Assembly (NCBI GenBank): GCA_038747915.1
Contig: JBCDJJ010000003.1
Coordinates: forward strand, 19,740 to 83,739
Reading direction: 5' to 3'
Origin: Planctomycetota bacterium
GTDB taxonomy: Bacteria > Planctomycetota > Phycisphaerae > Phycisphaerales > UBA1924
DNA: 64,000 bases
Part shown: in pieces, positions 17,980 through 40,409 of the stretch
How the letters are laid out: every line of letters begins with the position of its first letter
Position numbering within the stretch: the first letter of the stretch is position 1
The notes under the pieces: generated by a model
Told to the model about the DNA's origin: nothing
The model's input: only the letters and a program-made list of their open reading frames with translations
Databases searched by the model: none
Program-made: the position numbers and the translations under genes

Positions 17980-18454
17980 ATTCAGTCTTTCTTTGATTCA
18001 TGACCAGTGTGTGTGGCCCTGAGGCGAGCAGGGATGTCGCTCACCGATGCACGGTGATGTGGCGGGGCACGAAGAGGAGTAGGCCACTGAGCCCAGGAAT
18101 CGTCAATGTGTCCCGTAACAAAATGACGCAAAATGAAGTATAATTCAGAATATGATGTGTATTGCGCATTCAGGCCACATTATCTGGATCAAGAAAAGCG
18201 TTTCACTCTTTGATACGTTCTCAGTTATCGGGGGTGCAGGCATCAATATGGTGCATCCATCAGGCTTAATATCGGTTTTTGAATCATTTGAGTCGTGATG
18301 TATCGTTGTCGTCTTGCATTCCGGTGATTTTACGACATGATACGGTAAAACGTATCTTTTGCAGGGCAACACCGGCAATTCGGTGGAGAGCTGCCGGGTT
18401 CTGCCAGAGATGGGAAACACACCGCGTCAACCCGGAGCCTTGGGGGTTTTTGAT

Positions 18455-20879: not shown

Positions 20880-23324
20880 TCAGGCGGCTTCGCGTTCGGC
20901 GCTGTCGTCCTCGGGGAGCTCGGCCACGGCATCGGTTTCGGCATCGGTGGGATCGCCCGGTGTGCCCGGTCCTGGTGGGTCATCCGGCGCCTCGCGCCGG
21001 GCGATGGCAGCGAGGCGGGCTCGGTCGAGCAGCGCGGTGGGATCAAGCACGAGCCAGACCTGGCCGTTGTCGCCGAGGCAGGCACTGGCGACGAGGTCGC
21101 AGTGAGCGAGCCCGTCCTCGATGTGCTCGAGCACGAGCTCTTGCTGACCGAGCACGGTGGTCACGAGCGCCGCAGCGAGCGCATCGTTCTCGCCCATGAG
21201 CAGCGCGACCGCTGGCGAGGAGTCGGGCTCGCCGGCGAGAATCGCGGGGAGGTCGATCACGGAGAAGATTTCTTCGCGGACGCGGAGTGCCGGTTCGCCG
21301 CCGCAGGTATGGAGGCCGTGGTCGTCGACGCGGACGATCTCGCGGATCGCCGAGAGCGGCACAGCGTATCGCGCGCCGCCGATATCGATGACCATGGCGT
21401 CAACCACCGCCCCGCGGACGGGGACCGCGAACGAGACGCACAGCCCACCATCGTCGGCCGCGCCGCATGAGATGCTCACGCCCATCGCTTCGAGCGAGTC
21501 GGCGGCGAGCTTGAGCGGGTGATCCTCGTTTCGCGGGTCGAGTTCGAGGATGGCCTCGGGGAGACCTTTGCCATCATCGGTGATTGTGAAGCGGATCCGG
21601 CTTCCTTCGCTGTGGACCGCGACCTGGATGGTGCCCTGCTCGGGTTTGTCCGCGGTGGCCCGCTCGTCGGTGGTTTCGATGGACGTGGTCGCGCTGTAGC
21701 GGAGAATCTGCAGCAATGCCTCGGCGAATAGCTGGGTGTCGAAGCGATCGATCGGGATCGAACCGCCGATGGTGTTCACGACCACCTCGCGGTCGTTGAT
21801 GCGTGACAGGTCGGTGACCAGCGTGCCGAAGCCCTCGATCGTGTTCCCGATCGGCGCGGTCCTCATAATCTGGACTGCTTGCTGAAGCGTTCGCGTGAGG
21901 CGGTCGACCTCGGCGGTACACCGGTTGAGTTTCTGGCGTGTCTCCTCTGGGGCGCTTTGACTCATCTCGAGCATGGTCTGCGTCGCGAGTCGGAGCATGT
22001 TCTTGGCAACGACGAGCTGGCGTGTCGCATCGATCACGCCGCTCAGTTCAGGATGTGTGATATCGATCGTGGCGTCATGAGACTCGTGGGTGGCGGCGCT
22101 GCCGTGGGGCCCATCATCCGTGGATCCCGATGCGGCGGCCTCGGCCGCGATTTCGTCGAGTCGATCGAGATCGGGCAGCTCTTCAAAGGTTTCGACGACA
22201 CCGTCCAGTTCGAGGACGCGGTCGGGATCGTTGCGATGCCACGCGGTGAGCACGGGGTGCATCGTCTCGCCATTCAGCAGGGTCTCGATCCGCTCGGCGA
22301 ATCGGTTGAGTGGCCATCGGGTTTCCATGCCCACGCGCAAGCCGCTCGCGAGCTGCTCGATGAGTGCTTCGGCGGCGCGGACCCGGACGGTCAGATCGGG
22401 TATCGCTCCGTCTTGCACCGCAAGGGCCCGAACGGCGACCGATGCCAGGGTCTCGAGCAACTGCTTCAGGCTCGGGAACCCGAAGTGATCGGCGGTACGC
22501 ATGAGCCCGTCGGTCATCTCTCGGAGCGACTCGCACGCGTCCTTGCGCGATGAGAGCGCCGCCATGCGCTCCGCGAGTTCGTCGAGCTTCGTCGCGCTCT
22601 CCGAGAGCTCGATCGCGAGGAACTGCACCAGCTCCATCTGTGCGGTGTCGAGTGTGAGGGGGACAGTCCCCCAGTCTTCGGCGTCGTTCGAGCCATCGTC
22701 GTCCCCGGCGTCGTCCGCCATCATGGCAGCGACTTGCTCGGGTGTGAGCATCATCGGCCCACCGCTGGAGAGCGTTGCAGCGGGGTCGGCGTCGACCGGC
22801 GCTGGTGCGGGCTCGGCATCCGCCGGTGGGTCGACCGTGGGAGGATCAACCGCGGATTCCTCAAGATCGGTGTCGGCCGGTGTGCCGTCCGGTTCCTCGG
22901 ATATGAGGTCGGACGCCGACTCGGTAACGGGGGCCTCCTCGGCGACCGACTCGGGTGTCGTATCGATTGTCTCCGGCGCCTCAGCGATCTCTGGCGCCTC
23001 GGTTGTCTCATCGGATGCGGGGAACTCGGATGCGCCAGCGTCCGGTTCGCGCTTGTCGGCGCTGACCTCGTCCGGTTCGTGAGGGTCCTCTGCCGGGGTT
23101 GCCGGATCTGGCGTGGACTCGTCGGTCGGCGCTTCTGGTGGTGTCAGATCGATGGGGTCAACGACCGATTCATCTGTCGCGGGTGCATCCGATGAATCGC
23201 TTGCATCGGGCGGTGCGCCGTCTGCCTGAGGGTCGACTGGCGTCATCTCGGCCGGCGCATCGATCGCCTTGTTGGGCGCGGGCACGTCGGGTGCGGCACC
23301 GTCGGGTGTCGGCGTTTCGCTCAT
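20880..23324 (-). CDS. CheA-like histidine kinase (HPt - HATPase_c - CheW-like) with a roughly 230-aa acidic Pro/Asp/Glu-rich N-terminal extension
   Basis: HPt-like helix region ELVQFLAIELSESATKLDEL, CheA-type kinase core GSRIRFTITDDGKGLP, and C-terminal CheW-like VVDAMVIDIGGARYAVPLSAIREI. No receiver domain, and no cheY/cheW/MCP genes nearby. Confidence 0.8.
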   Translation of the reverse strand: MSETPTPDGAAPDVPAPNKAIDAPAEMTPVDPQADGAPPDASDSSDAPATDESVVDPIDLTPPEAPTDESTPDPATPAEDPHEPDEVSADKREPDAGASEFPASDETTEAPEIAEAPETIDTTPESVAEEAPVTESASDLISEEPDGTPADTDLEESAVDPPTVDPPADAEPAPAPVDADPAATLSSGGPMMLTPEQVAAMMADDAGDDDGSNDAEDWGTVPLTLDTAQMELVQFLAIELSESATKLDELAERMAALSSRKDACESLREMTDGLMRTADHFGFPSLKQLLETLASVAVRALAVQDGAIPDLTVRVRAAEALIEQLASGLRVGMETRWPLNRFAERIETLLNGETMHPVLTAWHRNDPDRVLELDGVVETFEELPDLDRLDEIAAEAAASGSTDDGPHGSAATHESHDATIDITHPELSGVIDATRQLVVAKNMLRLATQTMLEMSQSAPEETRQKLNRCTAEVDRLTRTLQQAVQIMRTAPIGNTIEGFGTLVTDLSRINDREVVVNTIGGSIPIDRFDTQLFAEALLQILRYSATTSIETTDERATADKPEQGTIQVAVHSEGSRIRFTITDDGKGLPEAILELDPRNEDHPLKLAADSLEAMGVSISCGAADDGGLCVSFAVPVRGAVVDAMVIDIGGARYAVPLSAIREIVRVDDHGLHTCGGEPALRVREEIFSVIDLPAILAGEPDSSPAVALLMGENDALAAALVTTVLGQQELVLEHIEDGLAHCDLVASACLGDNGQVWLVLDPTALLDRARLAAIARREAPDDPPGPGTPGDPTDAETDAVAELPEDDSAEREAA

Positions 23325-23672
23325 GTGCGTGTTCCAGTGGACGCGTCGATCAACAGTTCGGACAGAGAGCAGCATCGGTCGGCGCCGGATCAACGAACCA
23401 GTGCGAATCCCATCGCGGCGCGCCTCAAGATTGATTGTGATGATCGCACACCGTTTCGAGTGCGCCCGTCCCTGCAACCGGTGGGCCGCGGGTTGGGTCG
23501 TAGCGAAATCTCGGTGCGGCCCTGGATCAAATCGAAATCAAGCGCGGGAAGTCAGTGAGAGAGGCGGTCGATATCGCTCGCGGCGTTGCCGGCGTGTTGC
23601 CGCGCGGCGCACTCCGCCGGCTCGCGTGAGTTGGGGAGCACAGCACTGGCAGCACTGCAAGGAGCCAGAACC
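23325..23672. promoter_or_regulatory. Divergent intergenic region between the cheA-like gene and gvpA (putative shared promoter/operator region)
   Basis: 348-nt non-coding gap between divergent starts. AGGAG SD sits 8 nt upstream of the gvpA ATG. Confidence 0.3.
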
Positions 23673-23888: not shown

Positions 23889-23944
23889 GGACGGCGACGA
23901 TCGCGCGCGGTTGTTCGGTTCTCCCCGCCGTGCCGCCGCGCTCC

Positions 23945-23977
23945 CCGACGGAGCCTGCGCTCCGCACACTCCGTCGG
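23945..23977 (+). terminator. Hairpin downstream of gvpA (candidate attenuator/partial terminator)
   Basis: 9-bp inverted repeat CCGACGGAG ... CTCCGTCGG with a 15-nt loop, followed by CGTTCGTCC. A gvpA-proximal attenuator would fit the usual excess of GvpA transcript (inference). Confidence 0.25.
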
Positions 23978-24009
23978 CGTTCGTCCCCGCACCCATCGGC
24001 GAGCCTCGC

Positions 24010-24786
24010 ATGAGCGAGTCATCACACCACACCGACTCGGTGGGCGATCTGCTCGCGCGGGTCCGCGCCGAGCGGCTCCGCGCCGCCCAGCAGGCTGCCG
24101 AGCAGCGGCGAGCCTTTCTTGCTGAGCTTCGCAGCAGCGTCGAATCGATCCGGCAGGATGTTCGCGCGGTGGTCGACCGAGCCGCCGAGGACCCGCCCGT
24201 CGTCGAGGAAGCAGCACCAGAGACGGCATCAATGGCATCCGACGCTCAGCCATCCGAGCCACCGATCCTGAACCAGCACATGACCCAGGAGGAGTACCCC
24301 ATGCCGAAGCACACGAAGTCGTCGGCCGCTGCTAAAGAGCAGTTCTTCTCATCCCCCGAGGTGTCCGACGCCTCGGGAGCCGCCGAGGCCCCGGTCGAGT
24401 CACCCAAGAAACGGTTCTACAGCTCTCCCGATGTCGCTGCGATTGATATCGAGGCGGCCGAGCCGATTGATGCTGCCAACTCGCCGAAGCAGCAGTTCTT
24501 CTCGGCCCCGGCGGTTGGTGGTGCCGGCACAGCGCCGACGGCCGCTCCGGACCCTGCGCCGAGCAGCCCGAAGTCGGCATTCTTCTCATCACCCCCGGTC
24601 GGTGGTCAGGCGACGAGCGGTGACGCGACAGCGAAGCAGCAGTTCTTTCGTTCGCCGAGCGTTGACGGTGGCTCGGCCCCATCGACCGACTCGCCGAAGT
24701 CATCGTTCTTCTCCTCTCCGCAGGTTGGTGACTCGGTCGAGCCACCCCGCGACGAGAAGGGACGATTCGTCTCCAAGGTGGCCTGA
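24010..24786 (+). CDS. Repeat protein with six copies of a K-x-x-F-F-S-S-P-x-V motif (GvpC-position protein, novel)
   Basis: N-terminal helical domain DLLARVRAERLRAAQQAAEQRRAFLAELRSSVESIRQD. Repeats KEQFFSSPEV, KKRFYSSPDV, KQQFFSAPAV, KSAFFSSPPV, KQQFFRSPSV and KSSFFSSPQV occur about every 25 aa. Confidence 0.6.
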   Translation: MSESSHHTDSVGDLLARVRAERLRAAQQAAEQRRAFLAELRSSVESIRQDVRAVVDRAAEDPPVVEEAAPETASMASDAQPSEPPILNQHMTQEEYPMPKHTKSSAAAKEQFFSSPEVSDASGAAEAPVESPKKRFYSSPDVAAIDIEAAEPIDAANSPKQQFFSAPAVGGAGTAPTAAPDPAPSSPKSAFFSSPPVGGQATSGDATAKQQFFRSPSVDGGSAPSTDSPKSSFFSSPQVGDSVEPPRDEKGRFVSKVA

Positions 24787-24810
24787 TCCTGTGGCAAAGG
24801 GACAGACACG

Positions 24811-25662
24811 ATGAGCACCGACACCGGATCATCGCGCAACCCGGACCTCTCACGCCGGGTTGCTGACCTGCTCGCCGAGGCACGCCAGGCCCGGCTGGCC
24901 GCGAGCCGTCTCGCCTCCAACGCGCGCCGCGAGGCGCTCGCTGCGATTCGCGAGGAGGTGAGCACAATCCGCTCAGCGAGCGCCGAGGCACTCGCTCGTC
25001 CGGCCACGGAGGCGGTGCCGACAACGGACACGATCGATGTGCCGGTTGACCAAGAGGCCCCGTCGTCTGCGTTGTCAGACGATGTGAGCTCGCCGATCGC
25101 TGGTGAGGATGCAGCCGTTGAGCACGAGGCATCGACGCCTGAAGCGCCCGCGATCCTCGACCCACCTGCGGCGATCGAGTCACCCGCGGTCCCCGAGACG
25201 CCCACTATCCCTGAGTCACCCGCGGTCTCCGAGGCGCCTGTGGTTGCCGAAGCGCCCGCGGCATCCGCGGTACCGACACCGGTCTCCGGGCCGGTTCCGC
25301 CGGCCGAGACACCCGTCGAGCGTGAGGTGTCATCGCCGGAGCCTCCCACACCGCCGGCGTTGCCGGCGCGTGCAGCGAGCGCGCCTTCCGGCGAATCACC
25401 GCCATCAGAAGATCTCAGGGATGAGACCATCTGGGCACTTCCCGAGGTCGCGCCTATCCCGATGAACGCGTCCGCACCATCGCGGCACGCGTCGCCACCT
25501 GTTGCCGCAAACGATTCCCCCGCGCCCAAGACGCCGGCCTCGTCCGAAGATGCGCCGACGGATCCGGGCGCGATCCCATCGCCGCAGACGCTGCCCCCGC
25601 CGTCGGGCCCGTCGGTAATGCCCGCCCCGCCGGCGACGCTTCCACCGATGAAGCGCGCATGA
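24811..25662 (+). CDS. Pro/Ala/Glu-rich low-complexity protein with an N-terminal helical domain paralogous to 24010..24786
   Basis: N-terminus VADLLAEARQARLAASRLASNARREALAAIREEVSTIRS is homologous to the neighbour. It is followed by PESPAVPETPTIPESPAVSEAPVVAEAPA-type repeats. Confidence 0.55.
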   Translation: MSTDTGSSRNPDLSRRVADLLAEARQARLAASRLASNARREALAAIREEVSTIRSASAEALARPATEAVPTTDTIDVPVDQEAPSSALSDDVSSPIAGEDAAVEHEASTPEAPAILDPPAAIESPAVPETPTIPESPAVSEAPVVAEAPAASAVPTPVSGPVPPAETPVEREVSSPEPPTPPALPARAASAPSGESPPSEDLRDETIWALPEVAPIPMNASAPSRHASPPVAANDSPAPKTPASSEDAPTDPGAIPSPQTLPPPSGPSVMPAPPATLPPMKRA

Positions 25663-25805
25663 TGCAGGCAGCGGAGCGCGGCGCCCCCCGCTTTGGGCGG
25701 GAGCCCCGCACAGCCGGATCATGATCGAGCCCGAAGTGAAGACGTTTGGATGAAGCGTCGCGGCGCCGCTCCACTTGTGCCGGTCCGCTGCCGATAACGG
25801 TCGCC

Positions 25806-26795
25806 ATGACCAACGTCGAATCCGAATCCGCGGTCCGGCGCACCCACGCCATCGAGTTCGAGGCCTCCGAGGACTTCGTGCTCACCGCCGAGGTGCAGGC
25901 GATCACCGAGCGAGCCCTGGCGTACCTTGCGGCGGGCTACGGCATTCATCTCGCGGGCCCGGCTGGAACGGGAAAGACAACGCTCGCGTTTCATATCGCG
26001 GCGCAGCTCGGCAACCCGATCACGCTCGTGCACGGCAATGATGAGTTCGGCAGCTCCGACCTCGTCGGCCGTGACACGGGCTACGCGCGCTCGAGCGTGG
26101 TCGACAACTTCATCCACTCGGTGCTCAAGACCGAGGAGCGGGTTGACATCGCCTGGTCGGACAATCGGCTGACCACCTGCTGCGAGCAGGGGCACACGCT
26201 GGTGTACGACGAGTTCAACCGGACGAGCCCCGAGGCCAACAACATCCTGCTGAGCGTGCTCGAGGAGGGCATTCTCGATCTCCCGCGGTCCGACGGCGGC
26301 GAGCAGTACCTCGAGGTGCACCCGAACTTTCGTTGCATCCTGACATCTAATCCTGAGGAGTACGCCGGTGTACATCGGACGCAGGATGCGCTGCTCGACC
26401 GTGTCGTGACGCTCGATGTCGGTCATTACGATGAGGAGACCGAGACGCGGATCACCGCGGCCAAATCAAATCTGGACCTTGTTGATGCGGCCACCATTGT
26501 GGAGTTGGTCCGCACCATGCGGCAGGTGGGCGAGAGCCCGACACGCCCGACGATCCGGGCCGCCATCGCGATCGCACGTGTGTGCGCTGCCAGGGGGGCC
26601 AGCATCGATGCACACGACCGGTTCTTCCGCGCGGTCTGTCATGATGTGCTGCTCGGCGCACTGCGCACGGGCGGGTCCGGCCGCGGGGTGACCGCGAAGA
26701 AACTCGATGAGCTGATCGATCTCGTGCGGCAGGCTCGGGCGGTGGCCCCGCCGAAGCGGCTCGAGCGCACGGAGGCACGCGATGCGGCGGCATGA
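25806..26795 (+). CDS. gvpN: Gas vesicle protein GvpN (AAA+ ATPase)
   Basis: Walker A GPAGTGKTTLAFHIAAQLGNPITLVHGNDEFGSSDLVGRDTGY. GvpN/CbbQ-type AAA. Confidence 0.85.
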   Translation: MTNVESESAVRRTHAIEFEASEDFVLTAEVQAITERALAYLAAGYGIHLAGPAGTGKTTLAFHIAAQLGNPITLVHGNDEFGSSDLVGRDTGYARSSVVDNFIHSVLKTEERVDIAWSDNRLTTCCEQGHTLVYDEFNRTSPEANNILLSVLEEGILDLPRSDGGEQYLEVHPNFRCILTSNPEEYAGVHRTQDALLDRVVTLDVGHYDEETETRITAAKSNLDLVDAATIVELVRTMRQVGESPTRPTIRAAIAIARVCAARGASIDAHDRFFRAVCHDVLLGALRTGGSGRGVTAKKLDELIDLVRQARAVAPPKRLERTEARDAAA

Positions 26796-26825
26796 GTCGA
26801 CGCGATCGCCCCAAGGACGCCTGGC

Positions 26826-27152
26826 ATGAGCGGACCACCACGCGGACTCAACTCGATCAAGACAGCGGCGGGCGCCCGCGGCCGCGGTGCGCGTCTCTCG
26901 TCGATCTACTCGCGCATCCTGACGCTCGAACTCGAGCACGAGCGGCGCGCCATGGAGCGAGAGAACGCCATGCGCCGCGTGAGTTCCGCGGAGATCCGTA
27001 TGAAGCGGATCGAGGCCGAACTCGCGGCCCTTCGCGACCTCGCCGACAGCGCGGCCCGTGACACGGACGCGGCAGACCTTCGTACAGCGGAGATCCGCGA
27101 TGTCAAGCCTGTTGTGATGACCAAGCCCGATCGCGTCCGCCACCGGTACTGA
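26826..27152 (+). CDS. Hypothetical coiled-coil protein (GvpO-position)
   Basis: 108 aa, charged and helical: ELEHERRAMERENAMRRVSSAEIRMKRIEAELAALRDLAD. AAGGA SD 7 nt upstream. Confidence 0.45.
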   Translation: MSGPPRGLNSIKTAAGARGRGARLSSIYSRILTLELEHERRAMERENAMRRVSSAEIRMKRIEAELAALRDLADSAARDTDAADLRTAEIRDVKPVVMTKPDRVRHRY

Positions 27153-27169: not shown

Positions 27170-27487
27170 ATGAAGATCAACTGCATCCACTGCGGGCACA
27201 ACTTCTCGATCGATGCCGCGTACGACGACTACGAGGGTCTCGTCCGGTGTTCGACGTGTGGGGGCTTGCTCGAGATCAAGACATCCAGCGGTGCGTTGCG
27301 CGCCGTTCGCCCCGGCGCCATCCATGGCTCGGCACAACATGCGCCCGCCGAGACATCAACGACCGATCCCGAGGTTGAGCAGATGCGCCGTGAACTCGAG
27401 CGTCTGACGGCGGAGGTCCGCGAGGCGGCAGCGGAGGCGGTCCCGGCTCCCGAGTCGCCGTCGGGCCGTGCGGTCAAGCCGCTCTAA
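27170..27487 (+). CDS. Zinc-ribbon protein
   Basis: 105 aa, with CxxC...CxxC: MKINCIHCGHNF...VRCSTCGGLLEI. Confidence 0.5.
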   Translation: MKINCIHCGHNFSIDAAYDDYEGLVRCSTCGGLLEIKTSSGALRAVRPGAIHGSAQHAPAETSTTDPEVEQMRRELERLTAEVREAAAEAVPAPESPSGRAVKPL

Positions 27488-27536
27488 TGTGATTCATGAA
27501 CTGGCAGGTCACCCCAGCGAGTACGAGCGAGAACCG

Positions 27537-28364
27537 ATGAGCGACGAATTGCATGGCCTGTACTTCTACGGCATCGCACGCGGCGCCACCGTGGCTGAGC
27601 AACTCGCTGGGGCGCCGAGCGGCCTCGACGGGCGCCCGGTGTTCGCGGTTGTTGCGGGCGCACTCGCAGCGATCGTCAGCCTTGCGCCGGATGGCCGTCT
27701 CCGCCCGCAGCGTCGGGCGCTCGGCGCCCATCAGAGCGTGCTCAAGCACATCGGTGCACGCGGGCCAGCTCTGCCGGCATCGTTCGGCGTGATCGCGCCG
27801 AGCAGCGGGGGGCTCGCAGCGGTGCTGCGGGCCAATGCGGACACACTCGACGAGCAGCTCACAGAGACCGCGGGGTGTGTCGAGATGGGTGTGAAGCTCC
27901 GATGGGACGTCGACAACGTATTCGCCGACTTCGTCGATCGGTACGAGGTGCTCCGTGAGGCGCGCGTGGGTATCGCTGAGGGAGCGGCCAGCCGGGACGA
28001 ACTCATCGAGATCGGTCAGTTGTTCGAGCGGCTACAGGGCACCGAGCGCGACGAGGCACTCGCTGCGGTCCGTGGCACGATCGACACGGCCGCGCGCCGG
28101 GTCGTCGCCAACCCGCCGCGAAGCGAGAACGAGGTGCTGAACATCGCGTGCCTGGTTGAGCGCGACCGCGAAGACGGATTCGATGCAGCGGTGCAGCGGG
28201 CCGCGGAGTCGTTCGATGAACGGTTCGCCTTCGAGATTAGTGGGCCATGGCCGCCGTTCAACTTCGTCTCCCTCCGTCTCGAGTTCGATCACGATGCCTC
28301 GGGCGACGAGGCGGCGTTCGAGGTGATCGGTGAGCCGCACGTCGAAGTGAGCGAGGCCGCCTGA
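27537..28364 (+). CDS. gvpF: Gas vesicle protein GvpF/GvpL family
   Basis: LYFYGIARG...HQSVLKHI...PASFGVIAP, the GvpL_GvpF fold signature. Confidence 0.8.
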   Translation: MSDELHGLYFYGIARGATVAEQLAGAPSGLDGRPVFAVVAGALAAIVSLAPDGRLRPQRRALGAHQSVLKHIGARGPALPASFGVIAPSSGGLAAVLRANADTLDEQLTETAGCVEMGVKLRWDVDNVFADFVDRYEVLREARVGIAEGAASRDELIEIGQLFERLQGTERDEALAAVRGTIDTAARRVVANPPRSENEVLNIACLVERDREDGFDAAVQRAAESFDERFAFEISGPWPPFNFVSLRLEFDHDASGDEAAFEVIGEPHVEVSEAA

Positions 28365-28599: not shown

Positions 28600-30582
28600 A
28601 TGTCGAGGGATGCCGGGCGACCCCCGCGATTCATCGAAGACGATCGGCTCGCGATGCTCCTGTTCGGTGGCAAGGGTGGTGTCGGCAAGACGACCTCCGC
28701 TTGCGCCGCAGCGGTGCGCCTCGCGATGGATCGTCCTCAGACGAGCGTCACGCTCATCTCCACCGATCCGGCGCACAGCACGAGCGATTGCCTCGGCGAT
28801 ACGGACGATCTTCCAGAGAACCTCGAGCTTGTCGAGCTTGATTCGGCTGCGGAGCAGGCTGCATTTATCTCCGAGCACGCGGATCAGCTGCGTGAGATCG
28901 CACTCCGCGGCACGTTCTTCGATGAGGAGGATGTCGACACATTCCTCGAACTCGCGGTGCCGGGTGCGGATGAGCTGATGGCGTTCCTGACACTGGCGCA
29001 CCACGCGGAGCGCATCGAGAACTCGCCGGGAGAGCCACGCGTGGTCGTGGTCGACACCGCCCCGACCGGCCACACGCTCCGGCTGCTCGCGATGCCCGAT
29101 CTGGTCGATCGATGGCTCGGCGCACTCGATGCCTTGCTCGCCAAGCACCGGTTCATGGCTTCGGCGTTCGGGTCAACGGGTGTGGATGAGGTCGAGCTGT
29201 TCCTTGCTCGGGTGACCGGGCAGGCCGAGTGCTTTGGCCGATTGTTGCGTGACGGTTCACGGTGTCAGTTCGTGCCGGTGTTCACACCCGAATCGCTCGC
29301 GGTGGCCGAGACGAATCGCTTAGTGACCGAACTCGAGCGGCTGGGCGTGGCATGCGACGAGGCGGTGCTGAACCGGCTTGTGCCGTCAGGTGAAGGCGAC
29401 CTTGGCGAAGCGATTCGCGCCGCGCAGCATCGCCAGCTCTCGGCGCTCGATGATTCGGTGCTCTGCCTCGACATCTGGGGACTGCCGGTGGCCCCGAGCG
29501 AGCCTGTGGGTCGGGCAGCACTTGCATCGTTGTGGGACCCGGGGCTTGCACCGGGCGGCATCACCGCGTGGCTTGCGAGCGATGTCGAACACGAGCCCGC
29601 GGAGGCACCGCGCGTCATGCAGGGCCGCGCATTGTCGCTTGATCCCAAGCGTCGGCTGCTGCTCGTGGCGGGTAAGGGCGGGGTGGGGAAGACGACGGTC
29701 GCATGCGCCGCGGCGATGGCCCTTGCTGCGGCGCGAAAGAAGGGCGATGTGCTCGTCGTCTCAACGGACCCTGCGCACTCGGTGGGTGATTGCTACGGCG
29801 TGTCGCTCACCGGGGAGCCGATCGAGATCGTGCCGCGCCTGCGAGCGATGGAGATCGACGCCGAGGCAGAGTTTGATCGGTTCCGTGAGCAGTACGAGCA
29901 GGAGATCGACGCGGCCCTCGGCTCCCTGATCGAGGGGGGCGACCTGACGTTCGATCGCGAGGCGATGTCTCGACTCGTGGATCTCGCGCCGCCGGGCATC
30001 GATGAGCTGATGGCCCTCGTACGCATCATCGACGAGCTCGACGGGGTCGTCGGCCGCACCATCGTGTTCGATACCGCGCCGACCGGGCACCTGCTCCGCC
30101 TGCTCGAGACGCCGGAGCTGGTCGAGTCGTGGCTAGCCGGCGTCTTCAAGCTCATGCTGAAGTACGAGTCGGTCGTTCGGGTCCCCCGGTTGCGTGATCG
30201 GTTGATCGAGCTGAGCAAGGGGATCAAGTCCGTGCGCACGATGCTGGGCACCGCAAAGTCGTCGTCACTCGTCGCGGTTTCCATCCCCACAAGACTGGCG
30301 GTCGAGGAGCTGAGCGATCTCGCACTCGCGATCCGTTCCATGGGTGTGGCCTTGGCGGGGGTGGTGATCAACCGGTGTACACCGGATGGTGGGGGTGTCA
30401 TCCTGAGCGGACAGGCCGAGGCGGAGCGCCACTGGATCGAGGTGGCCCGACGTGCGGTGCCGGATGCTGCACCGATATGCCTTACATGGGGGGGTGAGCC
30501 GGTGGGGATCGAGCGCCTTGGTGCGCTCGGGCGCGAACTCTTTGCTGTGCACCGTGGTGGTCTGCTTTCCTCAGCCGCATGA
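28600..30582 (+). CDS. Tandem two-domain ArsA/Get3-like P-loop ATPase embedded in the gvp cluster
   Basis: Two halves, each with a deviant Walker A GKGGVGKTT (LLFGGKGGVGKTTSACAAAV and LLVAGKGGVGKTTVACAAAM) and the ArsA/Get3 switch motif DTAPTGHT (twice). Confidence 0.85.
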   Translation: MSRDAGRPPRFIEDDRLAMLLFGGKGGVGKTTSACAAAVRLAMDRPQTSVTLISTDPAHSTSDCLGDTDDLPENLELVELDSAAEQAAFISEHADQLREIALRGTFFDEEDVDTFLELAVPGADELMAFLTLAHHAERIENSPGEPRVVVVDTAPTGHTLRLLAMPDLVDRWLGALDALLAKHRFMASAFGSTGVDEVELFLARVTGQAECFGRLLRDGSRCQFVPVFTPESLAVAETNRLVTELERLGVACDEAVLNRLVPSGEGDLGEAIRAAQHRQLSALDDSVLCLDIWGLPVAPSEPVGRAALASLWDPGLAPGGITAWLASDVEHEPAEAPRVMQGRALSLDPKRRLLLVAGKGGVGKTTVACAAAMALAAARKKGDVLVVSTDPAHSVGDCYGVSLTGEPIEIVPRLRAMEIDAEAEFDRFREQYEQEIDAALGSLIEGGDLTFDREAMSRLVDLAPPGIDELMALVRIIDELDGVVGRTIVFDTAPTGHLLRLLETPELVESWLAGVFKLMLKYESVVRVPRLRDRLIELSKGIKSVRTMLGTAKSSSLVAVSIPTRLAVEELSDLALAIRSMGVALAGVVINRCTPDGGGVILSGQAEAERHWIEVARRAVPDAAPICLTWGGEPVGIERLGALGRELFAVHRGGLLSSAA

Positions 30583-30640: not shown

Positions 30641-30874
30641 ATGCCGCGCACGCGTCTTCACCAAGTAGCTCGTTCGTCCGGGAGGGCGCGGTGTATCGAG
30701 CCGCAGGAGACGATCCTGTGCGACGCGCTTGACCGTGTGCTCAGTGTCGGTGTGGCGGCGCGTGGCGACCTCGTGATCGCTGTGGCGGATGTGCCGCTGA
30801 TCAAGCTGAGCCTGGGTGTGTTGCTGGCCTCGGTCGAGACCGCCGAGGGCCGGATCGAGAGGGGGACACGATGA
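30641..30874 (+). CDS. Small GvpA-family protein (GvpS/GvpM-like), not called in the ORF track as a separate gene
   Basis: 77 aa: ILCDALDRVLSVGVAARGDLVIAVADVPLIKLSLGVLLASVETAEG matches the GvpA/J/M/S core (LxxxLDRxLxxGVxxxGDxxIxxxxVxLxxLxLxxxxASVE). ATGA overlap with the gvpK start. Confidence 0.6.
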   Translation: MPRTRLHQVARSSGRARCIEPQETILCDALDRVLSVGVAARGDLVIAVADVPLIKLSLGVLLASVETAEGRIERGTR

Positions 30875-31218
30875 CCCGATGCCCGACCGAACTCGAACCG
30901 CTGCTCTCGGCGCTGGAAGACGTGACCGCGGTGGACGACTCCGAGGCGGATGCCTCGCCGCGGCTCAACGTCGACCCCGCGGATGTGAAAAAGGGGCTCG
31001 GTCAGCTCGTGCTGACCGTGGTCCGGCTGCTGCACGAGCTGCTCGAGCGTCAGGCGATCCGTCGGATCGAGTCGGGCTCGCTGACCGATGACGAGGCCGA
31101 CCGACTCGGCACGACGATGAAGCTCCAAGCCGAGGAGATCGAGAAGCTCGCCGGCTACTTCGGGCTGCGCACCGAAGATCTGAACATGGACCTCGGCCCC
31201 CTCGGCAAGTTGATGTAA
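30871..31218 (+). CDS. gvpK: Gas vesicle protein GvpK
   Basis: GLGQLVLTVVRLLHELLERQAIRRIESGSLTDDEADRLG. Confidence 0.85.
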   Translation: MTRCPTELEPLLSALEDVTAVDDSEADASPRLNVDPADVKKGLGQLVLTVVRLLHELLERQAIRRIESGSLTDDEADRLGTTMKLQAEEIEKLAGYFGLRTEDLNMDLGPLGKLM

Positions 31219-31621: not shown

Positions 31622-32247
31622 TCGCCCGTGAGGCGCCCGGAGAGCGCCGACTCGTTGTCATCCCGATGCTGCACACCGAGACGGACCTCGGCGAGCTATC
31701 AGACCGTGTTCGGCGTGAGACCGTCGCCCATGCCGGTCGACGAGCGTGGGAGCGCAAGCAGCGTGCGATCGAGCGGCTATGGAGCGAGATCACCGAATGG
31801 TCGGAGCGTGTTGCGATCCCTGAGGCCGGCATGCGGCTCTACCAGGATGGTCTGCCGGTCTGCGGACCGGGCGAGCGCGATGTCACGCGCACCATCGTGG
31901 AGGATCTCGGTACACGCGGGAGCCTGAACCATCGCATCCTGCTGAGTCTCATCGAGCGCGGGGCGACGCTCGAGGGCACCGAGTCGCCAGAGTTGCTGCT
32001 CGCCGAGTATCGCTTGGCCCGGGGCGAGGCGGAGCAGGATGGTGATGGCACCCCCGCTGCGCACGATCTGCTCGAGCAACGTGACCGGTTCATCGCGCAG
32101 CGCATCGATGCCACGCTCGAGCCTCACCAGGTCGGCGTGCTGTTCATCGGGTATTTGCACAACATCCCGCCGCACCTGCCCGCAGGCATCACGGTCGAGC
32201 ACCCCTTCGACGTTGCCGAGGCCCTCAGCCAAGGAGCACACGCATGA
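31618..32247 (+). CDS. Hypothetical gvp-cluster protein
   Basis: 209 aa, coupled by ATGA overlaps to gvpJ upstream and hsp20 downstream. No recognised motif. Confidence 0.5.
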   Translation: MIAREAPGERRLVVIPMLHTETDLGELSDRVRRETVAHAGRRAWERKQRAIERLWSEITEWSERVAIPEAGMRLYQDGLPVCGPGERDVTRTIVEDLGTRGSLNHRILLSLIERGATLEGTESPELLLAEYRLARGEAEQDGDGTPAAHDLLEQRDRFIAQRIDATLEPHQVGVLFIGYLHNIPPHLPAGITVEHPFDVAEALSQGAHA

Positions 32248-32780
32248 GCACCGCCAACACCCCACCCGGATCGTCCGGCCACCCGTCGGGCGGCCAGCCC
32301 GCAGGGTTCCTTGATGGTCTAACTCGGCTGCTTCACACGATCGGCGAGCTCGCGGACAAGGGTGCCGAGCTGAAAGAGTCCGGACTGTTCGAGACAGAGT
32401 CGGGCAAGCAGGGCCGCGTGAACGTCGGCTTCTCGATCCGCACCGCGGGGACCGGTCAACCGGGCGAGGGCGGGCTCAAGGTCGAGCCGTTTGGCAACGT
32501 GCGGCGCAACCGCGAGACGGGCGAGGCGGAACTCGCTGCGGTGCGCGAACCGATCGTCGATGTGTTCGACGAGGAGGGCGAAGCGCTGCGTGTGGTGGCC
32601 GAACTGCCCGGTATCGATGAGAGCCAGGTGACTCTCCGCGCCGATGGGCGCACGCTCGTGCTCGAGGCCGAGGATGGCTCGAAGCGCTACCACGCCGAGG
32701 TCGAGCTCCCCCGCGAGGTGCGCGTGGAGGAGGCATCGATCTCGTGCAATAACGGGATCGCGGAGATCACCTTTTCTTGA
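32244..32780 (+). CDS. Hsp20/alpha-crystallin family protein (GvpH-like position)
   Basis: ACD: ALRVVAELPGIDESQVTLRADGRTLVLEAE...YHAEVELPREV...GIAEITF. AAGGAG SD. Confidence 0.85.
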   Translation: MSTANTPPGSSGHPSGGQPAGFLDGLTRLLHTIGELADKGAELKESGLFETESGKQGRVNVGFSIRTAGTGQPGEGGLKVEPFGNVRRNRETGEAELAAVREPIVDVFDEEGEALRVVAELPGIDESQVTLRADGRTLVLEAEDGSKRYHAEVELPREVRVEEASISCNNGIAEITFS

Positions 32781-32816
32781 GCGTGTGGACCACGCCTGTA
32801 TCACGATGAGTCGGAG

Positions 32817-34979
32817 ATGCGCCGGATGATCCGCAAGAGCCCTCCCGCAGCCGAGCTGACCCGCCGGGTCGCCGAGGCCCAGCCGAAGGATGTTGGCCGC
32901 GCCATCGCGCGCCTCGATCCCTCGGATCTGCGTGAGCTCGGTCTCGCGACGGGCGACACCGTCGAGGTGGTCGGTGCGCGGACGACCGTGTGCCGAGCGC
33001 TGCCGACACGGAAGTCCGACCGGTCCGCCGGCTCGGTTCACATCGATGGGATGACGCGCGAGAACGCGCGCGTCGGTGTCGATGCGGAGGTGGCGATTCG
33101 GCCGGTGCCGTGCCCACGGGCCGAGCGTGTGGTTCTTGAGCCAGAGGCCCGCCGCCCCGATGGGAAGGAGCTGGCGTACATCGCATCGCTGCTCGATGGG
33201 CTGCCGGTTTCGTCTGGTGACCGCGTGCGGGTGAACACCTTCGGTAATCGCCCGATGCACTTCCGTGTGAAGCGCACGATGCCGGATACGGCGTGCGTCG
33301 TCGCCTCGAGCACCGCGCTGGAACTCGTGGGCGGGTCATCGAGTAGCAGCCGAGCGAAGCGGGACGCACCCGCTGCAACGCCGGCGAGCGTCTCGTACGA
33401 GGATGTCGGTGGTCTGGGCAAGCAGGTGCATCGCATCCGGGAGACGATCGAGCTCCCGCTGCGCTTCCCCGAGGTGTTCGATCGCTTGGGGATCGATCCG
33501 CCTAAGGGCGTGCTGCTGCACGGCCCGCCCGGGTGCGGCAAGACACTCATCGCCCGCGCGATCGCGCACGAGACCAATGCCAACTTCTTCGTGATCTCCG
33601 GGCCCGAGATCGTACACAAGCACTACGGCGAGTCGGAGGCCAATCTCCGCAAGGTGTGGGCCGAGGCGACGCGTCAGGGTCCATCGATCGTGTTCATCGA
33701 CGAGATCGACTCGATCGCGCCCAAGCGGGAGCAGACACAGGGCGAGGTGGAGAAGCGGATCGTCGCGACGCTTCTTACCTTGATGGACGGGCTCGAAGCC
33801 CGGCGGGGTGTTGTCGTGCTCGCTGCGACTAACCTGCCGAACAACCTCGACCCCGCCCTGCGGCGACCCGGGCGATTTGACCGGGAGATCGAGATCCCGG
33901 TGCCCGACGCGATCGGTCGTGGTGAGATCCTCGATGTGCATACGCGCGGCATGCCGCTCGCGGCCGATGTTGATCTGGATCGAGTCGCCCAGATTACACA
34001 CGGGTGCGTCGGGGCCGATCTCGAGTCACTGTGCCGTGAGGCAGCGATGCACTGTCTCCGCCAGATCATGGGGGAGATCGACTTCGTCACCGGTGATGTG
34101 CCCTACGAGAAGCTCGCCTCGCTCACGGTCTCGATGAACGATTTCGTGGCCGCGTTCGCCGAGGTCACGCCGAGCGCTCTGCGTGAGGTATTCGTCGAGA
34201 CACCGCGTGTGTCGTGGGACGATGTCGGCGGTCTCGAGGATGTAAAAGCCAAACTGGTTGAATCGGTCGACTGGCCCGTGCGGCACGCAGCACTCTTTGA
34301 AGAGGCGAAGCTCCGTCCACCCCGCGGTGTGATGCTCGCCGGCCCTCCGGGTGTGGGGAAGACGCTGATCGCCAAGGCCACCGCGAGCCAGCTCGGCGCC
34401 AACTTCATCTCGGTGAAAGGCCCGGAGCTGCTGTCGCAGTTTGTGGGCGAGTCGGAGCGAGCGATGCGCGAGGTGTTCCGAAAGGCGCGGCTGGCCTCGC
34501 CATGTGTGATTTTCCTTGACGAGGCGGATGCGCTGCTGCCTAAACGCTCCGGTTCAGCGACCGATGGCGGCGTGCGCGAGCGTGTGGCGGCTCAATTCCT
34601 CACGGAGATGGACGGCATCGAGGAGCTGCGCGGCGTGCTTGTGCTCGCGGCGACGAATCGGCTGGACATCATCGATCCTGCGGCGCTCCGGCCGGGACGG
34701 TTCGATCACGTGATCGAGCTCGGCCTGCCGACACCGGTCGATCGCGAACGCATCTTCGCGGTCCATCTGCGCGATCGCCCGACGGGCACGGCAGTCACAG
34801 CTGAAGTGCTGGCGGAGCTCGCCGGCGATGTGAGCGGAGCAGAGATCGCGGGTGTGTGCGACCGGGCCGCGATGCTCGCGGTGCGAGACAGCGTGTCGGG
34901 CGGTGCCCCGATCCGAATGACGCTCGAACACTTCCGGGGCGCAATGCGCGACATCCTCGGCGTGGAGATCGAATCATGA
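32817..34979 (+). CDS. CDC48/VAT-type AAA+ ATPase (N-domain plus D1 and D2)
   Basis: CDC48 N-domain TRRVAEAQPKDVGRAIARLDPSDLRELGLATGDTVEVVG. Two Walker A motifs, GPPGCGKTLIARAIAHE and GPPGVGKTLIAKATAS, plus two second-region-of-homology segments. Confidence 0.85.
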   Translation: MRRMIRKSPPAAELTRRVAEAQPKDVGRAIARLDPSDLRELGLATGDTVEVVGARTTVCRALPTRKSDRSAGSVHIDGMTRENARVGVDAEVAIRPVPCPRAERVVLEPEARRPDGKELAYIASLLDGLPVSSGDRVRVNTFGNRPMHFRVKRTMPDTACVVASSTALELVGGSSSSSRAKRDAPAATPASVSYEDVGGLGKQVHRIRETIELPLRFPEVFDRLGIDPPKGVLLHGPPGCGKTLIARAIAHETNANFFVISGPEIVHKHYGESEANLRKVWAEATRQGPSIVFIDEIDSIAPKREQTQGEVEKRIVATLLTLMDGLEARRGVVVLAATNLPNNLDPALRRPGRFDREIEIPVPDAIGRGEILDVHTRGMPLAADVDLDRVAQITHGCVGADLESLCREAAMHCLRQIMGEIDFVTGDVPYEKLASLTVSMNDFVAAFAEVTPSALREVFVETPRVSWDDVGGLEDVKAKLVESVDWPVRHAALFEEAKLRPPRGVMLAGPPGVGKTLIAKATASQLGANFISVKGPELLSQFVGESERAMREVFRKARLASPCVIFLDEADALLPKRSGSATDGGVRERVAAQFLTEMDGIEELRGVLVLAATNRLDIIDPAALRPGRFDHVIELGLPTPVDRERIFAVHLRDRPTGTAVTAEVLAELAGDVSGAEIAGVCDRAAMLAVRDSVSGGAPIRMTLEHFRGAMRDILGVEIES

Positions 34980-35806
34980 ACCAATCTGGTGGTCCTGCCG
35001 TCAAGTCGCGGTTTGCGGTCGAGCCCAAGCCGGAGTCGTCGCCGTCGCCTATCTACGCAGCGGCGCTGCTACCGCCGGATGCGCCCGCGATCGAGGCACC
35101 GGGGATCGAGCAAGGCCTGACGCTCCGCACGGTGGAGATCGGCGGGTGGTGTGCGTTTGCAGGTGTGGTTGGCCTCTCGATGTTCATGGGCGACGACGCC
35201 GAGCAACGGCTCCAAGACCCTGCGTGGCTCACCCCGCGTGCGATCGCGCACGAGCGGGCACTGCTCGAGGCCCGGACACACGTCGACCTGCTCCCGCTCC
35301 CATTCGGCACGGTGTTCCACTCGCTCGACTCGCTCGCAGACCGGTGCGATCGTCACGCCGAGGTACTCGCCGACTTCTTCGCCAGAACCTGCGGCGCCTC
35401 CGAATGGTGCATCAAGGTGACAGCGAGCCGGCGTGACGCGATCGAGCACGAGGTCGAGTCGCGTTTAAACCTCGAAGTCGGGGCCGAGGCGAGCGGCGCC
35501 GCGTACCTCCGCGCTCAGGCACGTCGCCGCGCGATCGAGACCGAGGTGCTCCACGATCTCTCGGCCTTCGCCGATGAACAGGCCGACCGGCTCGATGCGA
35601 TCGCTCGCGATAGCTCGGATCGGCGTCAGACATCGGGAGAGCCCGACATCGAGACACTCGCGCACTGGGCATTCCTTGTCGATCGCCGCGAGAGCGAGCG
35701 GGTGTCCGAGCTCACGCGAGAGATCAACCACGGTGCGCCCTCCGGCGTGCGTTTCGATCTCGCGGGCCCGTTCCCGCCGTACAGCTTCACCCCACGGTTG
35801 AGCTGA
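34976..35806 (+). CDS. Gas vesicle protein GvpF/GvpL family (second copy)
   Basis: WLTPRAIAHERALLEARTHVDLLPLPFGTVFHSL. ATGA overlap with the cdc48-like stop. Confidence 0.75.
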   Translation: MNQSGGPAVKSRFAVEPKPESSPSPIYAAALLPPDAPAIEAPGIEQGLTLRTVEIGGWCAFAGVVGLSMFMGDDAEQRLQDPAWLTPRAIAHERALLEARTHVDLLPLPFGTVFHSLDSLADRCDRHAEVLADFFARTCGASEWCIKVTASRRDAIEHEVESRLNLEVGAEASGAAYLRAQARRRAIETEVLHDLSAFADEQADRLDAIARDSSDRRQTSGEPDIETLAHWAFLVDRRESERVSELTREINHGAPSGVRFDLAGPFPPYSFTPRLS

Positions 35807-37134: not shown

Positions 37135-37405
37135 GGGGCTTCTCCGATGGGTTGGCTCACCACAGGACTGAGGAGTTGGTCGGTCGAGGCGCCTCGCTCG
37201 TTCATCTCAACGACAACCCTTCATGCAAATCGATGTAAATCCCCAAGGACCGGGGAGCACCCGTATGCCGTCGCGCACCGATCGACCGGCAATCGAACCA
37301 CGGAGCACGAAGCACACCGTGAAGGGTCGCTTCCTCTCATCGAGCGCACCCGAGAGGCCGATAGCACAGACGCGCACGCCGGGCGACGAGACGCGAGTGA
37401 CCGAG

Positions 37406-38848
37406 ATGCCACCCAAAGCTATCTGCACCCACGAGGTCATCCGTGAGCGGCTCTACAACTCGCTTACGTCGAGCCCGGCGCCGGTCTTCTTCTTCGGTGA
37501 GAGCGCCATCCCCGGGCCGTCGATCTGGACCGCAGCGCGGAAGTGGGTGTCGATGTTCCGGCACCTCGGCGTGGCGCCGGGCGAGCGCGTCGTGCTCTCC
37601 CTTGATCCGGGGCCAGGGTTTCTCGCAGCACTCGTCGCTGGAATCTGGGAGGAGTTCACGCTCGTGCTCCCGGGCTTCGGTGATCGGCCGGAAGAAGTCG
37701 CCGACGAGACCAAGGCCCGCCTGATCCTCGACGAGGAGACCACCGCCGGGCGTCCGGGCACCGTCACGCAGATGCCCTTGTTCGTGACCGAACCCACTCC
37801 CGCTGCACGGTTTCTACTCCGATCGAGCGGCACGAGCGGTCGCTCGGACCGCTTCGTCGCGCTCTCGAACGAGAACATCCTGGCGGTGGCTGAGAGCCAC
37901 CAGTACGCCGTCCCGCCCGAGGGTAGCGTGGCGCTCTCGCTCCTCCCCTGGAACCACGCCTTCGGGCTGGTGCTCGAGCTGCTCCCGGCGCTCTGGTCGA
38001 CCACCATGTTCGTGCGCACACAGGATGCCGCGCGTGACCCAGCCATCGCGCTCGAATGGTCGAACAGGTTTGATGTCCGGTGGGCAAACATGGTGCCGCT
38101 GCAGGCGGCGCGGCTCGCCGCGTCATCGGGCGGGCTCGCATGGCTGCGTGGGCTCGACGGCGGCATCGTTGGTGGAGCGCCCGTCGATGGTGCGCTCGCC
38201 GATGTGCTCGCGACCACCAAGCTCCGTCCCGGGTACGGTCAGACCGAGGCATCACCGGGCATCACGCTCGGCGAGCCCGGCGAGTGGGGGGACCGGTGCA
38301 TCGGTCAGCCGGTCGGGTGCGAGACAGAGATCACACCAGATGGTGAACTCGTCGTGACGGGACCGAACGTCTGCCTTGGTGTGTGGGAACACGGGGCCCT
38401 GACCGAGTTCGATCCCAATCGCGCACTGCACACAGGCGATCTCGTCGAGCGTCTGCCCTCGGGCTCACTCGCCTTCGTGGGTCGGACCGATCATCGCTTC
38501 AAGCTGTCCAACGGCCGGTTGGTGGACGCACCGGCGCTCGAGCGCGACCTCGACGGCGTGGTGCTGCTGCCGGATGAGGGCGGCGCCGGCGTTGTCCTGG
38601 CCCTCGAGCCCGGGGCCGACGCCGGGCCCGATGTGCTGGAGTATCTCGGACGCATCCCAGCACGCACGATTCGGCTTGCCGAGGCGGCGCCCAGAACACG
38701 AAAGGGTGAGATCGATCGCCGAGCGCTCCAAGAGCGCATCCGATCCAACGACACACCACGGAGCACGCATGATCCCAGCGAGCACGCGTCCAACGACACG
38801 CCGGCCGATCTCGGTGACGCCACCATCGACTCACGCCGAGCCGCCTGA
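37406..38848 (+). CDS. pcl: AMP-dependent synthetase/ligase; candidate 4-coumarate-CoA ligase for PYP chromophore activation
   Basis: AMP-binding motif LLRSSGTSGRSDRFVALS. Position beside pyp and the ammonia-lyase mirrors pyp-pcl-tal clusters. Confidence 0.7.
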   Translation: MPPKAICTHEVIRERLYNSLTSSPAPVFFFGESAIPGPSIWTAARKWVSMFRHLGVAPGERVVLSLDPGPGFLAALVAGIWEEFTLVLPGFGDRPEEVADETKARLILDEETTAGRPGTVTQMPLFVTEPTPAARFLLRSSGTSGRSDRFVALSNENILAVAESHQYAVPPEGSVALSLLPWNHAFGLVLELLPALWSTTMFVRTQDAARDPAIALEWSNRFDVRWANMVPLQAARLAASSGGLAWLRGLDGGIVGGAPVDGALADVLATTKLRPGYGQTEASPGITLGEPGEWGDRCIGQPVGCETEITPDGELVVTGPNVCLGVWEHGALTEFDPNRALHTGDLVERLPSGSLAFVGRTDHRFKLSNGRLVDAPALERDLDGVVLLPDEGGAGVVLALEPGADAGPDVLEYLGRIPARTIRLAEAAPRTRKGEIDRRALQERIRSNDTPRSTHDPSEHASNDTPADLGDATIDSRRAA

Positions 38849-40358: not shown

Positions 40359-40409
40359 CCAACCGGGAAGCTGTGAATCCACCGAGAAACCGTCACGAAG
40401 TATATCAAT

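Follow-up and report, generated by a model that had tools for sequence, protein, structure and literature searches.

The 64-kb window analysed here, a stretch of 64,000 nucleotides of high-GC DNA (about 65%) from a Planctomycetota bacterium, carries a complete gas-vesicle (gvp) cluster on its forward strand at about 23.7-35.8 kb. Within this cluster lies the gene that is the subject of this analysis, which encodes a 660-residue tandem ATPase of the ArsA/Get3 family (Table 1). An earlier note on this DNA had placed the gene between gvpG and a gene of the GvpA family, and matches to PF05120 upstream and PF00741 downstream bear this out. The ATG of the ATPase gene follows the stop codon of gvpG after 5 nt and has a GAGGAG ribosome-binding site upstream. 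The note had further proposed that the protein is dedicated to gas vesicles and is not an arsenic pump; this is well supported, since the protein lacks the metalloid-binding cysteines, has no ars genes as neighbours, and belongs to a clade found almost exclusively in gvp clusters.

The description of the protein as a tandem ArsA/Get3-type ATPase held. The ArsA_ATPase domain (PF02374) was matched twice in the 660-residue product (E = 5.6e-95, 318.5 bits, cut-off 24.3, Pfam), and the NCBIfam model GET3_arsA_TRC40 (TIGR00345) scored 315.4 bits over a cut-off of 135. The N-terminal half spans approximately residues 9-330 and the C-terminal half residues 340-655, and both nucleotide sites are intact, with GKGGVGKTT and the switch I motif STDPAHS present in each. 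The two halves differ at the end of switch II, which reads DTAPTGHT in the N-terminal half but DTAPTGHL in the C-terminal one. Of the motifs that the note gave for both halves, GKGGVGKTT thus held throughout and DTAPTGHT in the N-terminal half only. In an alignment of 36 homologues the columns of GKGGVGKT, (S)TDPAHS and DTAPTGH are invariant in both halves. By thresholds, motifs and fold alike, the protein is a member of the ArsA/Get3/TRC40 superfamily, and it is 100% identical to a database entry (P0001) annotated as 'ArsA family ATPase [Planctomycetota bacterium]'.

The deviant Walker A motif is also common to ParA and MinD, and weak CbiA/ParA matches in Pfam (53 and 39 bits) might suggest an ATPase that positions gas vesicles, spacing them within the cell or anchoring them there. 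We regard this as very improbable. The ArsA_ATPase model reaches 318 bits against about 50 for ParA-type models, MinD models give 35 bits where their cut-offs exceed 200, the helical subdomain of Get3 and ArsA is present, and the C-terminus carries no membrane-targeting amphipathic helix. Moreover, a fused pseudo-dimer would presumably be unable to run the ATP-driven monomer-dimer cycle that ParA systems require.

Annotation sources give the label 'arsenite-transporting ATPase', under which the gene would encode a genuine arsenite-pump ATPase lying by chance inside a gvp cluster. Escherichia coli ArsA, from the plasmid arsRDABC operon, was added as a reference to the 36-sequence clade alignment, and its three metalloid cysteines are all missing from the ATPase: C113 falls on a gap beside the invariant PGxDE motif of the clade, C172 corresponds to F185 (F/Y across the clade), and C422 to the invariant G466. 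No cysteine that could form another metal site is invariant across the clade, and the commonest cysteine columns (75-83%) form no CXXC pair, the zinc motif of Get3 homodimers. Profile searches agree in that the family models were passed and the arsenite-pump ArsA equivalogs were not, with scores far under their cut-offs (TIGR04291, 158.5 bits against 650; NF041417, 241.8 against 800). The statement that no arsB, arsR or arsC lies nearby was likewise confirmed, none of the ArsB, ArsD, Acr3/SBF, ArsC or ArsR families being found among the major open reading frames (ORFs) of the window. In one related locus (L005, 12928-14497, reverse strand), an ArsP_1-family permease and an ArsR-type helix-turn-helix regulator lie directly after the gvp cluster, as an ars connection would have it; as only one of some 20 loci has the pair, and on the opposite strand, we judged it coincidental. 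Given also that gvp synteny is kept across phyla and that true ArsAs form a separate clade with arsD, arsR and acr3 neighbours, an arsenite pump is effectively refuted.

The genomic context of the clade was assessed on relatives sampled from metagenome loci and by exact-protein look-ups; a scan of genome contigs with the ATPase alone returned one distant Clostridiales locus of the ars type. The metagenome scan, seeded on the P-loop, gave 80 loci spanning the whole superfamily. Each domain was scored against a hidden Markov model built from the halves of the clade, and the flanks were searched with the Gvp proteins of the window and the E. coli Ars proteins. At domain scores of at least 290 bits, where gvp-linked means gvp genes or linked chaperone genes in the flanks, 18 of the 19 distinct loci were gvp-linked, which confirms enrichment near gvp genes, and none had arsD, arsR or arsB of the E. 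coli type; the remaining locus is a 2.1-kb contig without a flank. Between 200 and 290 bits, five of 15 distinct loci were gvp-linked, again with no E. coli-type arsD, arsR or arsB, the others being short contigs or housekeeping-like contexts. Below 200 bits, E. coli-type arsD, arsR or arsB accompanied 15 of 57 distinct loci, and a single locus was gvp-linked (L040, where the contig ends within the ATPase gene). Within the loci of the clade, tblastn found no homologues of E. coli ArsR, ArsD or ArsB.

The more distant two-domain homologues lie in arsD/arsR/acr3 operons. When Pfam families were counted around 26 two-domain homologues from outside gvp clusters, ArsD occurred nine times, HTH_5 (ArsR-type) eight times, SBF/Acr3 and LMWPc six times each and ArsB once; the list of the 25 most frequent families contains none of the Gvp type. 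Homologues at 42-48% identity obtained by exact-protein look-up, on the other hand, are all in gvp clusters; the labelled loci among the look-ups derive from Rectinemataceae (Spirochaetota), Chromatiaceae, Desulfobacterales and Phycisphaerales, and the others from unlabelled metagenome-assembled genomes. Of two lower-scoring members of the clade (whole-protein scores), one at 543 bits lies in a gvp cluster and one at 499 bits beside hsp20 and Gvr-like regulators. In a neighbour-joining tree of single domains, the N halves and C halves of the clade and a single-domain gvp-linked form make up a superclade that is separate from the ArsA halves encoded in ars operons, those of E. coli among them, so that phylogenetic placement accords with the proposed gas-vesicle function. 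The family is large: an exhaustive profile search brought up 1713 representatives with E-values no higher than 1e-30, and scores of 495 bits or more against the clade profile were reached by at least 150 representatives (50% identity). All members sampled whose flanks could be read were located in gvp clusters.

The order of genes recurs as well. The common arrangement is gvpA-x-gvpN-x-(Zn ribbon)-gvpF-gvpG-ATPase-GvpA-family-gvpK-GvpA-family, and all tandem loci that extend far enough to show what precedes the ATPase have gvpG there, L096 with gvpO in between. Start and stop codons frequently overlap in these loci, suggesting translational coupling. Embedding in gvp clusters next to gvpG is thus near-strict across the clade.

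Table 1. Coordinates, strand and supporting matches of the features of the gas-vesicle cluster and its flanks in the 64-kb window.
Feature	Coordinates	Strand	Match or remark
CheA-like kinase	20880-23477	-	HATPase_c + CheW
gvpA, major shell protein, 71 aa	23673..23888	+	89% identical to GvpA of L007
gvpA-gvpN interval, 1.8 kb	23911-25662	both	Long overlapping ORFs
gvpN (AAA+)	25746..26795	+	TIGR02640, 339.7 bits, cut-off 266.8
Small conserved basic ORF, gvpN-gvpF interval	26792..27061	+	No Pfam family above curated threshold
Zn-ribbon protein, before gvpF	27170..27487	+	PF13717, E = 1.3e-5, below curated Pfam threshold
gvpF/L paralogue 1 (gvpF)	27468..28364	+	PF06386, E = 2.4e-57
gvpG, 76 aa	28364..28594	+	PF05120, E = 9.6e-19
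Tandem ArsA/Get3-family ATPase, 660 aa	28600..30582	+	PF02374 x2, TIGR00345
Small GvpA-family paralogue, 77 aa, GvpM/S-like ('GvpA2' position)	30641..30874	+	PF00741, E = 1.2e-8; NF046091 GvpM
gvpK	30871..31218	+	PF05121, E = 1.4e-31
GvpA-family paralogue 2, GvpJ-like, 130 aa	31229..31621	+	PF00741, E = 3.8e-16; NF046090 GvpJ
Conserved cluster ORF, 209 aa	31618..32247	+	No Pfam match; ATG overlaps gvpJ stop
GvpH / small-heat-shock-like protein	32244..32780	+	PF05455 GvpH, E = 5.1e-5
Cdc48/VCP-like double-AAA ATPase	32817..34979	+	CDC48_N, CDC48_2, 2x AAA
gvpL/F paralogue 2 (gvpL)	34976..35806	+	PF06386, E = 8.1e-33; ATG 34976 overlaps Cdc48 stop
AMP-binding enzyme + aromatic amino-acid lyase	37223-41258	+	Transglutaminase-like protein next

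Three further ORFs of the cluster have counterparts at matching positions in related loci. The true start of gvpN may be at 25806. The small basic ORF that follows it is 37.5% identical over 64 residues to a 111-residue ORF at the equivalent position of L007, the Zn-ribbon ORF is 45% identical to a 65-residue ORF of L005, and the 209-residue ORF after gvpJ is 45% identical over 191 residues to a 198-residue ORF that follows gvpJ in L002. GvpG is built of a hydrophobic N-terminal segment and an acidic helical tail. In the interval between gvpA and gvpN, a weak match (37% over 52 residues) was seen to an ORF at the equivalent position of L005, and a GvpC- or GvpO-like protein may be encoded there.

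The small-heat-shock-like (sHsp, GvpH) gene and the Cdc48-like gene after it (32244-34979, forward strand) form a conserved element of bacterial gvp clusters of this kind: GvpH/sHsp homologues adjoin Cdc48 in L007, L010, L012, L015, L024, L026, L029 and L092, and homologues of the Cdc48-like ATPase are 51-59% identical in related gvp clusters. The pair occupies the position of gvpH-gvpZ in the Serratia gvrA operon, and a literature search brought up no account of a Cdc48-like unfoldase in gvp clusters of bacteria. In related loci, the half with regulatory and accessory genes reads sigma54 regulator, GvpH, Cdc48-like, GvpF, PAS kinase and response regulator. In the window, the gene immediately upstream of gvpA runs on the opposite strand and encodes a CheA-like kinase; the Phycisphaerales twin locus L092 has this kinase too (2260-5070, reverse strand), which hints at a chemotaxis-type control of buoyancy. 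The AMP-binding enzyme and the aromatic amino-acid lyase that flank the cluster of the window also flank that of L092, there in the opposite orientation (15949-18941, reverse strand).

One claim on the immediate surroundings of the ATPase did not stand. The downstream GvpA-family gene had been described as overlapping it, an appearance that arises because the longest ORF, starting at 30452, was taken. This start was rejected as an artefact, as ATG 30641 matches the homologues better, fits their N-termini and is preceded by GGGAG; with this likely start, a gap of 58 nt separates it from the stop codon of the ATPase, and the overlap is probably not real.

We then compared the ATPase with characterised members of the superfamily. 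Its closest solved relative by sequence is ArsA1 of Chlamydomonas (236 bits, E = 5.7e-69), ahead of true ArsAs (112-130 bits) and of single Get3/TRC40 chains (about 100-139 bits). The helices alpha7-alpha9, which follow switch II, measure 59 residues in the gvp tandem halves, with 48% hydrophobic residues and 4.1% Met, against 44 residues, 37% and 1.8% in the ars-operon ArsA halves, a two- to threefold enrichment in Met. In these respects the gvp halves are similar to other, single-domain proteins of the Get3-like type. The AlphaFold2 model of the ATPase reached a predicted local distance difference test score (pLDDT) of 84.7 and a predicted template-modelling score (pTM) of 0.83, with lower confidence in the helical subdomains. 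Foldseek searches with the whole model retrieved closed ArsA structures first (template-modelling score (TM) 0.73-0.78, E = 2.7e-29), with ArsA1 at 0.61, and Get3 monomers superpose on each half at TM 0.75-0.79.

The protein encoded just downstream is a candidate client or partner. It belongs to a distinct GvpA subfamily with the motif SLC(E/D)ALDR..ISVA.(I/V)DL.Y, and it contains the most hydrophobic 19-residue segment of the cluster (Kyte-Doolittle, KD(19) 2.21, residues 44-62), which ends 15 residues from the C-terminus. Among its relatives the tail after this segment measures 13-37 residues in most loci. A strict rule of tail-anchored clients was rejected, as the tail reaches 75 residues in L096 and the protein is fused N-terminally to GvpK in L007.

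Single-domain forms and natural fusions provide further links. A single-domain member of the clade (about 310 residues, 314-325 bits) lies directly between hsp20 and cdc48 inside the gvp clusters of L024, L026 and L029, and the single-domain form of L040 follows hsp20 and runs off the contig end; an ATPase-hsp20 arrangement is found in L097. In L002-L004, the reading frame of the tandem ATPase continues into that of the GvpA-family protein downstream, giving a fusion product of 760 residues (L002, 4076-6358), and the DNA of this fusion is identical in three JGI metagenome samples, so that it represents one population. An internal Met preceded by GAAGGG could still permit separate translation. 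Elsewhere, one called gene of L007 (11940-12569) encodes a GvpA-family-GvpK fusion of 209 residues with both Pfam domains, L096 (4584-5579) a GvpL/F-DnaJ fusion of 331 residues, and L094 (426-3380, P0241) a fusion of tetratricopeptide repeats (TPR) to the tandem ATPase, 984 residues long and with a DnaJ gene after it; the 4-kb contig of this fusion shows no gvp genes. Among longer members of the family this TPR protein was the only further fusion found, other extensions having no Pfam match. Each case is anecdotal; together, the fusions and the association with sHsp, Cdc48, DnaJ and TPR proteins speak for functions in protein folding and hand-over. The four natural fusions may also be ready-made constructs for interaction studies.

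The same neighbourhoods could indicate a factor of quality control or disassembly which, with the sHsp and the Cdc48-like unfoldase, captures shell proteins from collapsed or mis-assembled vesicles. The single-domain forms between hsp20 and cdc48 or after hsp20, the arrangement in L097, and the presence of both sHsp and Cdc48-like genes in the cluster of the window would all fit such a role. However, the tandem gene belongs to the biosynthetic core gvpF-gvpG-X-gvpA-like-gvpK, to which it is apparently translationally coupled, and no Cdc48 is present in the sequenced flanks of L091, L093 and L096. We consider this role improbable.

Our favoured interpretation is that the ATPase is a dedicated accessory factor of gas-vesicle biogenesis, a pseudo-dimeric protein acting as a Get3-like holdase and delivery factor; we put its probability at roughly 0.5, the mechanism being inferred. 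A chaperone or targeting role is made plausible by the affinity to ArsA1, the helical subdomain, the GvpA fusion, and the sHsp, Cdc48, DnaJ and TPR links. By analogy with Get3 and ArsA1, the two helical subdomains would come together in the ATP-bound, closed state to form one hydrophobic, Met-rich groove, and this groove would take up an aggregation-prone hydrophobic Gvp protein soon after its synthesis. The best candidate clients would be the downstream small GvpA-family paralogue, GvpA or GvpJ, or the hydrophobic N-terminus of GvpG. The ATPase may then keep its client soluble until ATP hydrolysis releases it at the nascent vesicle, the presumed site of GvpF, GvpG, GvpK and GvpL. The co-encoded GvpH-like sHsp and the Cdc48-like unfoldase would probably cooperate with it in a small proteostasis module. 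Conjecturally, GvpG could be either client or docking partner. The fullest version of this model, in which a prokaryotic Get3-type chaperone brings shell proteins to a lipid-free organelle and its gas-water interface, with GvpG as docking partner and the sHsp and Cdc48 completing the module, is tentative, and we would give it somewhat less than even odds.

The context in gvp clusters agrees equally well with a nucleotide-gated switch or assembly motor that acts on the nucleation and elongation machinery (GvpF, GvpG, GvpK and GvpL, alongside GvpN), for example by timing or licensing the insertion of shell subunits, and is not a holdase. The invariant neighbour is gvpG, not a gene for a shell protein; the conserved charged residues K182, R184 and K521 of the alpha7 helices would suit specific recognition and not generic hydrophobic recognition; and a proposal that the ArsA homologue of gvp operons 'energizes a biogenic step' (PMC2963123) is in line with such a role. 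Against it stand the helical subdomain, which is hydrophobic, Met-rich and Get3-like, and the sHsp, Cdc48, DnaJ and TPR links, which point to chaperoning. Furthermore, ArsA/Get3 proteins are not known to work as mechanical motors. A switch or motor therefore appears unlikely, if a reading to be taken seriously.

Several observations weigh against the Get3-like chaperone as well. The ATPase-GvpA fusion is confined to a single population among the loci seen and retains what may be an internal start, and the tail-anchor-like topology of the candidate client, though common, is not conserved throughout. The fold does not separate ArsA from Get3, since Foldseek places closed ArsA structures above ArsA1; fold comparison was discarded as a discriminator, as it is the way the two halves are oriented to each other that sets this ranking. 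Neither a receptor like Get1/2 nor a partner like Get4/5 turned up, although no search was aimed at them. The Serratia gvp gene list does not name such an ATPase; where the cluster of the window has the ATPase, the left operon of Serratia presumably has gvpW. Halobacterium, which also makes vesicles, is not known to have an ATPase of this kind. Finally, an interaction study of the Bacillus megaterium cluster from 2024 proposes GvpF and GvpG as the chaperones of GvpA, and the accessible part of that study mentions no such ATPase for the cluster (PMC11445434). Because of its absence from the Serratia list, from the B. megaterium study and, as far as is known, from Halobacterium, we describe the ATPase as an accessory factor.

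How the very hydrophobic GvpA-family proteins stay soluble and enter the growth zone is an open question of gas-vesicle assembly, and engineering is under way to use gas vesicles as acoustic reporter genes. Many gvp clusters, from several bacterial phyla, have a second conserved ATPase, which is an obvious candidate for the chaperoning step. It has been ignored because the model clusters (B. megaterium, Serratia and Halobacterium) are not reported to contain it. If the fullest version of the chaperone model is true, omission of the ATPase could explain the failure of some gvp clusters in heterologous hosts.

The novelty implied in the earlier note, namely that such an ATPase is not part of any described gvp set, did not survive comparison with the literature. 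Castillo and Saier reported in 2010 that gvp operons hold two-domain ArsA homologues (their Clusters 4 and 6), in which the three cysteines are not conserved, that these operons include hsp20 and lack arsR, and they proposed a role in gas-vesicle biogenesis for the ArsA homologue (PMC2963123). Their set covered four phyla, with Bacteroidetes/Chlorobi, the delta-proteobacterium Geobacter uraniireducens, cyanobacteria and an acidobacterium, and with examples such as G. uraniireducens Gur2, Nostoc PCC 7120, Microcystis, Pelodictyon and Polaribacter (PMC2963123). In a study of 2017, a cyanobacterial ArsA belonged to a co-evolving cluster with eight Gvp proteins (PMC5464585). The protein described here resembles those homologues in its two ArsA domains (660 residues here against about 640, range about 600-690), in its position amid gvpN/F/L/G/J/K/M and hsp20, in having no ars genes nearby, and in its missing cysteines. 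From this shared architecture and context, it most likely belongs with the 2010 clade, whose sequences are not in our tree. Unlike the members of that set, it comes from the Planctomycetota, a phylum outside it.

Since the association has been published, the ATPase is a new planctomycete member of a known, experimentally uncharacterised kind, and these data do not reveal a new kind of system. Absent from the 2010 account are the fixed gvpG-X-GvpA-family position, the fusions, and the single-domain variants beside hsp20 and cdc48. The present analysis adds this fixed position and the near-perfect specificity of the clade for its context, on a much larger sample, as well as the affinity to ArsA1 and the single-domain and fusion variants. 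The bioinformatic observation of 2010 is thereby sharpened into a testable hypothesis, with GvpG and the downstream GvpA-family paralogue as partner candidates and with two architectures. A literature search found no paper combining 'gas vesicle' with Get3.

Among characterised proteins, ArsA of the E. coli R773 type (and that of L. ferriphilum, 9nbw) shares with the ATPase the tandem build, the overall fold and the nucleotide motifs. In contrast to ArsA, the planctomycete protein has no cysteine triad, has a longer and more hydrophobic alpha7-alpha9 region, falls into a separate clade, and has gvp instead of arsD, arsB or acr3 neighbours. Get3/TRC40 proteins of yeast, human and archaea are matched by TIGR00345, by the superposition of each half (TM 0.75-0.79), and by the hydrophobic, Met-rich helical subdomain; they differ in being zinc-bridged homodimers, whereas the ATPase is a fused tandem, and its candidate clients are not classical tail-anchored membrane proteins.

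The nearest parallel by sequence among solved structures is ArsA1 of Chlamydomonas reinhardtii (PDB 5zme/5zmf), a Get3-like pseudodimer that has no CXXC and carries tail-anchored proteins of the chloroplast (PMC11170914). Both proteins are tandem pseudo-dimers without a CXXC motif, both have long helices after switch II, and where ArsA has its cysteines both show the motif PPG(L/I/V)DE. They share about 24% identity in the structural alignment and reach a TM of only about 0.6, and their halves are oriented differently in the model. The clients of ArsA1 are tail-anchored proteins of the lipid membranes of a eukaryotic organelle; the ATPase of the window would presumably serve an organelle that is free of lipid and has a shell of protein. 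If the fullest version of the chaperone model holds, the Get3 mechanism would reach beyond membrane insertion.

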